From Candidatus Jordarchaeales archaeon (GTDB lineage: Archaea; Asgardarchaeota; Jordiarchaeia; Jordiarchaeales; Freyrarchaeaceae), in assembly GCA_038858525.1 (NCBI GenBank), contig JAWCFL010000001.1, positions 139,172-171,171 of the forward strand: DNA of 32,000 bases, read 5' to 3'. The notes under the pieces were generated by a model that had not been told where the DNA came from, did not search any database, and worked only from the letters and a program-made list of their open reading frames with translations. This document shows positions 4,432 through 10,091 of the stretch, in pieces. Numbering within the stretch: position 1 is the first letter of the stretch; the number at the start of each line of letters is the position of its first letter. Position numbers and translations under genes: made by a program.

Positions 4432-5454
4432 ATGGGGGTAAATTTGAAAGAGCTGGTTATTGCACAGCAAGTCTCAATTAAGGAGCTTTCAGGCAAAGTT
4501 ATAGCTATAGATGCTATGAACGCCCTTTATCAGTTCTTAGCGACGATAAGGCAGCCGGATGGAACCAGCCTCATGGATAGGACGGGGAGAGTAACTTCGC
4601 ATCTTAGTGGCTTATTTTATCGAACAATTAACTTTCTAGAGGAAGGAATAAAGCCTGTCTATGTCTTCGACGGGAAGCCCCCAGCTCTAAAGATGAAGAC
4701 AGTAGATGAAAGGAGAAAGCTGAGGGAGGAAGCTAAGGAGAAGTGGGAGGAGGCTTTGGCGAGAGGAGAAATTGAGGAAGCAAGAAAATTTGCGCAGGCG
4801 GCGTCCTTCATAACTGATGAGATGATAAGTGAAAGTAAGGAGCTATTAGAGGCGCTTGGAGTACCGTATGTTCAAGCACCCTCAGAGGGGGAAGCGCAGG
4901 CAGCTTACATGGTTAAAAAAGGAGACGCTTGGTGTACCGCTAGCCAAGACTACGATTCCCTTTTGTTTGGCGCGCCACGGCTTATAAGGAATTTGGCAAT
5001 TAGTGGAAGGAGGAAGCTTCCTGGAAAGAAGGAATACGTGAAAGTTGAGCCAGAACTGATAAGCTTGGAGGATGTCTTAAGGATACATGGAATAACACGG
5101 GAGCAGCTTGTAGCTATAGGAATCCTCCTGGGTACAGATTATAATGAAGGAGTGAAGGGTGTAGGCGTTAAAACAGCTCTAAAACTAATTAAAGAACACG
5201 GATCCTTAAAAGAGATAATCAAGGTTAAAGGTTACGTCTTCGAGGCTTCTGTTGAAGAAGTGGAAAAGATCTTTTTGGAGCCGGAGGTCACCGATAATTA
5301 TACGTTAAGCTGGCGTCCCCCGAAAAGGGAAAAGATCTTCAAGATACTTTGCGACGAACACGACTTCTCGCAGGAGAGAGTCTCTAAAGCGTTGGACAGA
5401 GTTGAGGCGACGAGAAAAGAGACGAAGCAAACAAGCATAGAGAGATTCTTTTAA
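4432..5454 (+). CDS. fen: Flap endonuclease 1
   Basis: [56 protein letters not shown] and C-terminal PIP box QTSIERFF. Confidence 0.98.
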
Positions 5455-6171
5455 CCGAGAGATTGATGTTCCCATCCGTAGCGTCCTACGAGAGGGACGA
5501 AGGCTACCGGGCCATAGTTTCTTTTCTTAACTTTGCCTTCCTCGTCCTTCTCAACCAAAACAAGTACCTGATTGTAGTAAAATTGGCCGACGGGTATCAC
5601 CATGCGTCCATTTGGCGCTAACTGAATAAGGAGGGGCTCAGGAATAGATGGGCCGGCGGCGGTCACTAGTATAGCATTGTAAGGTGCCTCTGGAGGATAT
5701 CCAAGAGTGCCATCACCCAGAATAACTGTCACCCTGTCTCCGTAGCCGGTTTTCTCCAAATTACGTTTAGCAAATTCGACCAGTTCTTCTAATCGTTCTA
5801 TCGTATATACATGACCACGTTTCCCTCCTTCGGGAGCGACTATTTCGGCGCATAACGCAGCGTGATAACCCGACCCTGCCCCAACCTCGAGAACCTTCAT
5901 TCCCTCACGTAGCTTTAGAAGGTCACACATGAGAACGCACATATTTCGCCTAGAGAAGTTAATAAGCTTCTCTATGTGGCGCAGATATGGTCTGTCCTCC
6001 CGGTATGGGGAGAGGGCGATCATCATAAGCAGAGTCTCTTAACTCGTCAGGAACGAAATCCTCTCTAGGAACCTTCATGAACGCTCTAATTACAGCTTCG
6101 TCCTTAACAAAGCCTTCTAATTTAAGCCGCTCTATAAGGGCTTTCTTTTTCTCCAAAAGAGATTCATTCAA
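5451..6171 (-). CDS. pcm: Protein-L-isoaspartate O-methyltransferase, two exons (6171-5976 and 5944-5451), 229 aa after splicing
   Basis: N-terminal ORF (VPREDFVP...[17 protein letters not shown]) and C-terminal ORF ([43 protein letters not shown]) join in frame when 5945-5975 is removed. Confidence 0.93.
5945..5975 (-). other. 31-nt BHB intron in pcm mRNA
   Basis: Minus strand CGCC AC^A TAGAGAAG CTTATTAA CTTCTCTA GGCG AA^A: 4-bp central helix CGCC/GGCG, two 3-nt bulges and an 8-bp intron helix. Contains an in-frame TAA. Confidence 0.9.
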
Positions 6172-8295: not shown

Positions 8296-10091
8296 ATGAG
8301 GCTACGATCGCCTATAGCTGTTGTTTTGGGGCACATAGATCATGGCAAATCATAGCACGGCTTCGTGCTATGGGCTAAACACTTTTACTAGATGCGATTA
8401 GGGGGACAGCCGTTCAAGCTAAGGAGGCAGGCGGGATCACCCAGCATATAGGTGCATCCTTTCTGCCTGCAGACGTCATAATGACTTTCGCTGAGGACTT
8501 GGCCGAAAAATTTAACGTGAAGCTGACTATTCCCGGCGTGCTAGTCCTAGATACACCCGGGCATGAAGCCTTTTTTAACCTCAGGACGCGAGGGGGAGCG
8601 ATCGCAGACATTGCCATACTGGTTGTTGACGTGATTCGCGGCTTCCAAACGCAGACATACGAGTGCATTAACTTGTTGAGAAGTAGGCGTGTCCCATTTT
8701 TAATTGCCGCAAACAAAGTGGATTTAATCCCCGGCTGGCGCCCCTCTGGCTCTAAGTCTATTCTTAAAGCTATAGAGGTTCAGGAAGAACACGTCAAACG
8801 AGCTTTAGACGAAAAAATATATGAATTAATAGGAGAACTTTCCGCGTGCGGCTTTAATTCTGAACGGATCGACAGGGTGCGTGATTTTACCAGAACTGTT
8901 GCCATAGTTCCCACGAGCGCCAAGACAAAGGAGGGTATCGCTGAACTAATGGTTGTGCTGGCTGGATTAACCCAACAGTACATGAAGAAGAAGCTGACAG
9001 TCTCTGAGGGAGAAGGCAAGGGCGTTGTTTTGGAAGTTAGGGAGGAACCTGGTCTCGGTATAACCATAGACGCCATTCTTTATGATGGAGTCCTCCGCAG
9101 GGATGACCTCTTAGTAATAGGCGGACTCGATGGCGCTGTCGTGACAAGAATTAGGGCGTTACTGCAGCCTAAACCACTAGACGAAATGAGGGACCCAAGA
9201 GAAAGGTTCGACTCGGTGAGTGAAGTAGCCGCTGCGGCTGGTGTAAAAATCGCGGCGCCTCACCTTGAAAAAGTTGTGGCCGGTGCGCCATTAAGAGCCG
9301 TGCGTGACGAGGAGAAAGTGAAGGAGGTCGAGTTGGAAGTTCAGCAAGAAGTGGAAAGCATAACCATAAAGGGAGACCGTGTGGGAGTTGTAGTCAAGGC
9401 CGATACGCTTGGGTCGCTAGAGGCGCTGGTGAACTTCTTCAGGGAGAGAGGGATAACCATTAGAATAGCGGATATAGGTGATGTAGCTAAAAGGGACGTG
9501 ATGGAGGCGGCCGTCGTAGCTGAGAAGGACCCTCTTCAAGCGGTTATCCTAGCTTTCAACGTTAAAATTTTGCCTGACGCAGAGGAAGAAGCCAAGAAGT
9601 ACGGCATTAAAATTTTTGAAGAAAAGATAATTTACAGGTTATTCGAGAATTATAATGAGTGGGTTTCAGAGAAGAAGGAAGAAATGAGACGGAGAGCTAT
9701 TGAGGGCTTAGTTAAGCCAGCAAAGATAAAGATCCTTCCAGGATACGTTTTTAGGCATAGTAAGCCTGCCATCGTCGGGGTGGAGGTTCTTTCAGGAGAG
9801 ATTAAGCCGAAGTATCCTTTGATGAAGGAGGATGGTCAAGAGATCGGAGAGATACTGCAAATACAGGATAAAGGAGAGGCAAGGGCGTACGCGCGGAGAG
9901 GGGAACAAGTTGCGGTCTCGATTAGGGGGCCTACTGTTGGGAGGCAGATCGATGAGGGGGACATACTTTATACGAGTATGCCGTTAAGTCATATAGAGAA
10001 GTTTAAAGCCGAGCTAGTAGAAGAACTTACATCAGACGAGCTTGAAACGCTTAAAGAAATCGAGAGCGTGAAAAAGCAAAGGAGAGCGTAA
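8296..10091 (+). CDS. infB: Translation initiation factor aIF5B (IF2), two exons (8296-8349 and 8379-10091), 588 aa after splicing
   Basis: Exon 1 MRLRSPIAVVLGHIDHGK joins exon 2 TLLLDAIRGT..EAGGITQHIGAS..DTPGHEAF..NKVD. The ORF track misses the first exon and the start of the second. Confidence 0.93.
8350..8378 (+). other. 29-nt relaxed-BHB intron in infB mRNA
   Basis: GGCA AA^T CATAGCACG GCTT CGTGCTATG GGCT AA^A: 9-bp intron helix, central helix with 3 of 4 pairs (one A.G), bulges in BHB register. Contains an in-frame TAG. Confidence 0.82.

Follow-up and report, generated by a model that had tools for sequence, protein, structure and literature searches.

A predicted tRNA-type bulge-helix-bulge intron in the pcm mRNA of Asgard archaea and Bathyarchaeia

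The interrupted pcm gene and its predicted fold

The minus strand of the window (the whole 32,000-nt stretch of Jordarchaeales DNA analysed here) carries pcm, the gene for protein-L-isoaspartate O-methyltransferase (PIMT), among ordinary archaeal housekeeping genes (FEN1, DUF371, Trm5/Tyw2). Two ORFs flank an insert in this gene. The first (6171..5959) encodes 70 aa and ends in ...APHREAY, followed by an in-frame TAA at 5961-5959 that the insert supplies to the unspliced frame; this is the premature stop that an earlier, sequence-only reading of the DNA had reported. The second ORF is out of frame, and its in-frame part begins at the ATG at 5942. That reading took the insert to be a bulge-helix-bulge (BHB) intron in mRNA, an interpretation that the analysis below supports. 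The minus-strand sequence it quoted matches the DNA exactly, and at the site reads ...ACC ATA TCT GCG CCA C|ATAGAGAAGCTTATTAACTTCTCTAGGCGAA|AT ATG TGC.... The parts of the gene and of the predicted motif are collected in Table 1.

Table 1. Parts of the pcm gene and of the putative BHB motif, in window positions
Feature	Position	Strand	Remarks
pcm exon 1	5976..6171	-	TTG start at 6171-6169; last base is C, the first base of the His codon
Putative BHB intron, 31 nt	5945..5975	-	third nucleotide of ACA, hairpin, GGCG, first two nucleotides of AAA
pcm exon 2	5451..5944	-	AT of the His codon, then ATG of APHM; stop at 5453-5451
CGCC, exon strand of the 4-bp central helix	5978..5981	-	inside codons GCG CCA (Ala-Pro); partner is GGCG at 5947-5950
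GGCG, intron strand of the central helix	5947..5950	-	from fold, covariation and the test of 37 inserts
Intron hairpin h'	5951..5974	-	arms TAGAGAAG (5974-5967) and CTTCTCTA (5958-5951), loop CTTATTAA (5966-5959)
5' bulge ACA	5977-5975	-	between the central helix and the 8-bp hairpin
3' bulge AAA	5946-5944	-	between the central helix and a short exon-exon helix

Excision of 5975..5945 (31 nt) leaves GCG CCA C|AT ATG TGC and a frame of 229 codons from the TTG at 6171. Cutting at the canonical BHB positions thus restores the frame, and the 229-aa product that had been predicted follows by computation. The expected spliced junction in this genome is ..GCGCCAC|ATATGTGC.., with CAC ATG equivalents in other genomes. 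A single cut position gives His at the junction in the source genome; moving both cuts one base earlier would give Asn. The repeat of ATA at the two junctions, which had also been pointed out, is real, but it is trivial and absent from other genomes.

We folded the site in silico. The unconstrained minimum free energy (MFE) structure of 71 nt contains the CGCC/GGCG helix, the 3-nt 5' bulge ACA and the 8-bp hairpin, at -20.5 kcal/mol (z = -2.86); all 200 shuffled sequences were less stable. The geometry described from the letters (four central pairs, 3-nt bulges ACA and AAA, an 8-bp intron helix) was borne out, with the qualification that the 3' site appears in the MFE structure as a small internal loop (CUG/AAAU), slightly larger than a strict bulge. 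The strict 3-nt bulge AAA depends on the adjoining G.U and U-A closing pairs, and the helix that closes it is weak in the source genome, consisting of G.U, U-A and then a mismatch. The helices flanking the motif are h' of 8 bp and an h made of one or two adjacent pairs plus a distal exon-exon helix.

The two exons were analysed separately against structures and family profiles. Exon 1 covers positions 2-63 of the Pfam PCMT profile (PF01135; 57 bits) and exon 2 positions 61-208 (168 bits, E = 3.6e-49), placing the split at about profile positions 60-66. PDB matches of the exons include 1JG1, 2YXE and 4O29. Exon 1 aligns to residues 16-77 of 1JG1, and exon 2, from its residue 2, to residues 80-229. 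In the solved PIMTs the two exons abut with one residue, the His, between them (77|78|79 in 1JG1; 61|62|63 in 4O29). Excision would leave nothing missing and nothing added. Measured against the family profile and the solved PIMTs, the predicted spliced product would be a full-length protein-L-isoaspartate O-methyltransferase.

Conservation and covariation of the insert in two phyla

The named genomes nearest to the source genome are Candidatus Jordarchaeia/Jordarchaeum MAGs, which identifies it as an Asgard archaeon. To survey the Asgard archaea, we ran a family search of 400 genomes and then read the loci directly. An insert at the same site in pcm was found in 17 of the about 400 genomes sampled. 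These comprise all five genomes of the source genome's own family (Jordarchaeum/Freyrarchaeum), all six of its sister family, including the complete genome of Freyarchaeum deiterrae, both complete genomes of Atabeyarchaeia, Baldrarchaeum yapensis, and three genomes of a further family, f15. The insert is absent from the remaining Asgard families and from the Thermoprotei, Thermococci and others fetched, in which an uninterrupted A-P-H-M or its equivalent is found. The Asgard inserts are 25-32 nt long and occupy the same codon throughout. Their hairpin sequences vary between families while self-complementarity is kept, and unconstrained MFE folding recovered the BHB core in 14 of the 17.

Across the 12 pairs of the core, 97% of cells in a MAFFT alignment (A1) are standard pairs, compared to 77% when the sequences were shuffled and 31-52% when the partner strand was slid. 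Two-sided changes were seen among the 17 genomes in nine of the 12 pairs, namely all eight of the hairpin and one of the central helix. Because the exon strand of that helix encodes protein, it can vary only synonymously; one such change, GCG to GCA, is matched in the intron by GGCG to GGTG. All 17 inserts also form the pair that closes the 3' bulge. Beyond the closing pairs, the outer exon-exon helix was tried as a conserved feature and dropped; we did not count it because its register differs between families and because it is made of coding sequence. By these comparisons, the structure of the insert is maintained by compensatory change.

We then extended the comparison to Bathyarchaeia. The pcm gene is present in 97 of 111 genomes, and in about 25 of these 97 it is either split at profile position 57-60 or matches over its full length with in-frame stops and extra length. 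Twenty of the about 25 candidates were fetched, and all 20 carry an insert of 21-57 nt in the same codon and of the same design, which puts the Bathyarchaeia tally at at least 20 of the 97 pcm-bearing genomes.

All 37 inserts (17 from Asgard archaea, 20 from Bathyarchaeia) were subjected to one uniform test in which the cuts were set by the reading frame alone. The central helix was paired at all four positions in every insert, and the closing pair of the 3' bulge was likewise present in 37/37. With the cut placed after the second bulge nucleotide, the junction codon was CAY (His) in every case. In 35 of the inserts the hairpin runs for 4 bp or more from its base, and the other two have one mismatch. 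CGCC/GGCG is replaced by CACC/GGTG in six of the 37 genomes, with one G.U intermediate. Each insert brings a frame shift or an in-frame stop (37/37). Insert lengths are unconstrained modulo 3 (13, 14 and 10 inserts in the three classes), as expected for a sequence that is never translated. An alignment of pcm with its relatives had been named by the sequence-only reading as a way of checking the intron. This comparison lends the interpretation strong independent support: all 37 inserts, from two phyla, interrupt one and the same codon, and their helices show compensatory changes.

That reading had also raised decay of the gene in relatives as the contrary outcome. A hairpin-forming insertion could have inactivated pcm, leaving a pseudogene on its way to loss, and the broken frame and the truncated proteins in public annotations are what such decay would produce. 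We found no further stops or frameshifts in the pcm exons of the 37 genomes. Between the source gene and its relatives, dN/dS was 0.03-0.07 in the first exon and 0.06-0.10 in the second. One caveat here is that, even among the pairs with estimable dS, dS was 0.9 or more and near saturation, and hence these values are rough, yet they lie far below 1. By these ratios, both exons are under strong purifying selection, which excludes a decaying pseudogene. Moreover, no other true pcm was found in the source genome (2.09 Mb, 63 contigs, 92.7% complete), and the insert is retained in a single codon, its helices covarying, throughout 37 genomes from two phyla. We regard the probability of decay as negligible.

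Proposed splicing and alternative readings

Several features of the source genome bear on how the insert might be removed. It encodes two EndA paralogues (regions G000:C3:81835-82089 and G000:C43:5978-6235), one with the catalytic Tyr/His/Lys residues and the other without the His, an alpha-beta arrangement, and genes for RtcB and Archease are present. For the BHB introns of cbf5, cleavage has been stated to occur 'between the second and third residues in the bulges' (PMC2738675). In the mechanism that we propose, the pcm pre-mRNA would fold as hBHBh', with the exon CGCC (Ala-Pro of TISAPHM) pairing with the intron GGCG. A heteromeric alpha-beta EndA would cut each bulge between its second and third nucleotides, and RtcB with Archease would ligate the two exon ends, so that the interrupted His codon C|AT is made whole and the frame restored. 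The joined mRNA would allow synthesis of the 229-aa PIMT, while unspliced RNA would yield just the 70-aa fragment ended by the intron TAA. What we infer here is that the RNA is cut and religated in the cell, and at what point with respect to translation. Because a further 36 genomes of Asgard archaea and Bathyarchaeia have the same insert in the same codon, splicing of the mRNA by the tRNA-splicing enzymes is almost certain. Judged from DNA, we put the probability at about 0.88 that the pcm insert is a real, conserved tRNA-type BHB intron in mRNA, removed by EndA and followed by RtcB ligation.

A different way to obtain an active enzyme would be to make it in two pieces, with a 70-aa N-terminal part and a 163-aa C-terminal part starting at the ATG of APHM assembling into an active PIMT without RNA splicing. 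The arrangement of signals is compatible with this: the intron provides a stop, its 3' end is purine-rich and resembles a Shine-Dalgarno (SD) sequence (AGGCGA, or AGGTGA in some genomes) ahead of the exon 2 ATG, exon 2 opens with ATG in 37/37 genomes, and gene callers predict a piece of 158-164 aa. However, the ATG encodes the conserved Met of APHM, which is also found in intronless genes, and a role as SD sequence does not explain why changes in GGCG go together with changes in the exon strand CGCC upstream (giving CACC/GGTG). Nor does translation in two pieces give any role to the 3-nt bulges, the 4-bp helix or the compensatory changes of the hairpin. The break would fall inside the active-site motif, with the His lost or replaced by junk (..HREAY), whereas solved PIMTs are continuous at this point, and the exact restoration of His upon excision would go unexplained. 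We therefore consider a two-piece enzyme highly improbable.

Ribosomes might also hop over the hairpin without any RNA processing, as they do in phage T4 gene 60. A hairpin and a nearby stop do lie between two coding segments, and some genomes have a His codon on both sides of the gap (CAT ... CAC ATG). In the source genome, however, the take-off codon would be CAT and no matching landing codon exists, the ATG being preceded by GAAAT. The gap itself ranges from 21 to 57 nt, an almost three-fold variation, and what is conserved is the BHB bulges and the exon-intron helix rather than pairs of take-off and landing codons. Translational bypass or recoding of this kind has, in our view, a minute probability.

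Both alternatives dispense with cleavage of the RNA. The preferred reading, removal by EndA and RtcB, predicts a spliced product, and we searched public data for it. A degenerate 32-mer specific to the Jordarchaeum junction, which tolerated third-position variation within the genus, had no matches among JGI metagenome and metatranscriptome contigs. The corresponding 32-mer for the Freyarchaeia/f15 junction had two, on contigs of 13-17 kb, and both were rejected as unrelated intronless pcm genes with about 54% identity. No full-length protein from an intron-bearing lineage was found in the public protein collection, the closest full-length sequence being at most 73% identical. Proteins with >75% identity to those of the Jordarchaeum/Freyrarchaeum, Freyarchaeum, Atabeyarchaeia and f15 lineages are all truncated calls of 149-191 aa, and for Baldrarchaeum its own entry alone exceeds 75%. 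The protein clusters of intron-bearing lineages that we looked up consist of truncated members or C-terminal fragments. One pair is closer, a truncated 158-aa protein being 91% identical to a full-length Borrarchaeum PIMT. A 228-aa protein (P0008) was considered as a spliced product and rejected, as it comes from an intronless gene of another organism. Given that the close relatives are all truncated calls and that no JGI contig carries the spliced form, the insert is fixed in the DNA of these lineages. Its removal from RNA is predicted.

The lack of a spliced product on record, in public contigs and proteins alike, would also be seen if the BHB were cleaved without productive religation, as an endonucleolytic off-switch, or if the intron were removed conditionally, in a regulated form of unconventional splicing. 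EndA does process substrates other than tRNA, such as a Haloferax 5' UTR (PMC7714728). Against this, purifying selection acts on exon 1, and excision rebuilds the His codon precisely in 37/37, from which it follows that a joined product must be made and must matter. An off-switch or regulated removal is very improbable.

The searches brought out a systematic annotation error. In intron-bearing lineages, pcm has been deposited as proteins of 149-191 aa (clusters P0001-P0005, P0010, P0078, P0082), and some of these truncated entries have spurious N-termini derived from the intron or from another frame, e.g. MLAGRHM.... With pcm annotated as a truncated protein of 150-190 aa, such genes will be miscounted by gene callers as well as in metabolic reconstructions and in estimates of completeness.

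Origin of the insert, known BHB introns and further inserts

The inserts of Asgard archaea and Bathyarchaeia share their phase-1 position, the same His codon and the same exon-intron helix. In a pcm tree, intron-bearing genes group by host lineage. A single clade of intron-bearing genes was not rejected, either for the 17 Asgard sequences (p-AU 0.93) or for all 37 (p-AU 0.20). A protein of 225 columns leaves the choice between one gain (with losses) and several gains at one site undecided. The classes Jordiarchaeia and Atabeyarchaeia are not sister groups (10.64898/2026.10.13.758758), which makes their common pcm position notable under either origin. One reading, which we hold to be rather unlikely, is that the pcm intron is ancient, either inherited from before the Asgard/Bathyarchaeia split or spread by site-specific reinsertion, and that mRNA splicing by EndA and RtcB would be an old and general capacity. 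If so, such splicing would be old among the archaea from which eukaryotes arose, and no cbf5 curiosity.

The closest known counterpart is the BHB intron in the cbf5 pre-mRNA of Crenarchaeota (Watanabe 2002; Yokobori 2009, PMC2738675). The cbf5 introns measure 16-44 bp and contain no ORF, some are multiples of three in length, their presence varies among relatives, and mis-annotation is routine (PMC2738675). The cbf5 and pcm cases are alike in that a short ORF-less BHB insert lies within a coding region. They differ in host gene (RNA modification for cbf5, protein repair for pcm) and in distribution, the cbf5 insert occurring in Sulfolobales/Desulfurococcales and the pcm insert in Asgard archaea and Bathyarchaeia. 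In pcm the motif is canonical: all four central pairs are present, as are the two flanking helices. Most of the cbf5 motifs, by contrast, have been described as unconventional. Splicing of cbf5 has been proven by cDNA, while that of pcm is deduced from DNA.

The pcm intron also resembles archaeal tRNA introns in motif, size class and enzymes. Introns are present in 92-95% of the tRNA genes of these Asgard lineages (10.1101/2023.11.21.568159), and tRNA introns at canonical and non-canonical positions are very frequent in Freyarchaeia/Jordarchaeia and Atabeyarchaeia (10.1101/2023.11.21.568159; 10.64898/2026.10.13.758758). The pcm intron thus occurs in Asgard classes (Freyarchaeia/Jordarchaeia, Atabeyarchaeia) that have introns in >90% of their tRNA genes. 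Unlike in tRNA introns, the host RNA is an mRNA, and splicing must be coordinated with translation. A third point of comparison is HVO_1309 of Haloferax volcanii, whose mRNA has a BHB in the 5' UTR that the splicing endonuclease processes both in vivo and in vitro (PMC7714728). That BHB sits in an untranslated leader and leaves the reading frame uninterrupted, whereas the pcm BHB interrupts the coding region.

Eukaryotes splice HAC1/XBP1 mRNA in a regulated manner by Ire1 cleavage and ligation by RtcB or Trl1. The pcm case would be similar in that a short mRNA intron is removed independently of the spliceosome, a tRNA ligase joins the ends, and the change of frame decides which protein is made. 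In HAC1/XBP1, by contrast, the endonuclease is Ire1 and recognizes stem-loops, and the known regulation belongs to HAC1/XBP1.

Apart from the HVO_1309 5' UTR, a 2020 study gives cbf5 as the only additional BHB intron reported in archaeal mRNA (PMC7714728). Full-text searches found no paper combining 'bulge-helix-bulge' with 'isoaspartate'. Neither the Jordarchaeia description nor the Freyarchaeia/Atabeyarchaeia genome paper (10.1101/2023.11.21.568159) mentions mRNA splicing, and a 2026 preprint on Asgard introns covers tRNA genes only (10.64898/2026.10.13.758758). With cbf5 alone published, pcm is almost certainly the second archaeal coding region with a cbf5-type pre-mRNA BHB intron, as predicted from genome sequence. 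Such an intron, conserved and covarying in a second gene, would point to a wider use of the tRNA-splicing machinery on mRNA, including in the Asgard archaea, to which eukaryotes are more closely related than to any other prokaryotes. The pcm site, with its canonical motif within about 70 nt, offers a clean substrate for studying how splicing and translation are coordinated without a nucleus.

Other candidate inserts were noted in the source genome. Within the window, a 29-nt hairpin-containing insert at 8350-8378 (+) splits the GTPase P-loop GHxDHGK|T of aIF5B/infB, between the upstream frame ..RSPIAVVLGHIDHGK and the downstream frame TLLLDAIRGTAVQAKEAGGITQHIGAS... This would be a relaxed BHB, with three of four central pairs (GGCA/GGCT). 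Also in the window, at about 7964-7835 (-), lies a putative tRNA-Lys(CUU) gene with two inserts; its D-arm is interrupted by about 22 nt and its T-arm by about 30 nt. Its parts include the acceptor GGGCCGC/GCGGCCC, the anticodon arm CCGGG-CTCTTAA-CCCGG and a T-arm GTGGG..TTCGAATCCCAC, and ARAGORN calls it as tRNA-Lys after double excision, the boundaries being approximate. Rfam and ARAGORN reported no RNA genes in the window, both missing this tRNA. In the whole 2.09-Mb, 93%-complete genome, ARAGORN finds 11 tRNA genes, eight of them with introns; so few calls fit the published non-canonical interruption of most tRNA genes in these Asgard lineages.

About 6 kb past the window end, the source genome's cbf5 contains a 30-nt BHB insert (G000:C1:177182-177211, +) that splits the catalytic Asp codon (G|AT), the position described for crenarchaeal cbf5 introns (PMC2738675). 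A short BHB-shaped insert was seen in the gene for PEP synthase (G000:C1, about 42663-42682, +); its excision joins VAVRSSASAED.. and ..ASFAGQQDTFLN. The scanner's solution for this insert is 17 nt, and the true boundary may differ. A genome-wide scan for frame-fusing BHB inserts recovered the pcm, cbf5 and PEP-synthase sites. Its hits did not exceed those of a control in which the 3' cut was shifted by one base, and hence it has no power to count mRNA introns. Three more inserts of 24-31 nt (G000:C2:68773-68802, C3:105835-105865 and C13:45688-45711, all +) each show a hairpin of 6-10 bp, a central helix of 4 bp and a 3' bulge AA^A, and their excision fuses long coding-like frames. Finally, extra pcm copies in three Asgard genomes (G388:C26, G390:C14, G023:C126) carry a single in-frame TAG or TGA with no added length; the codon could be recoded as Pyl or Sec, or the copies could be pseudogenes.
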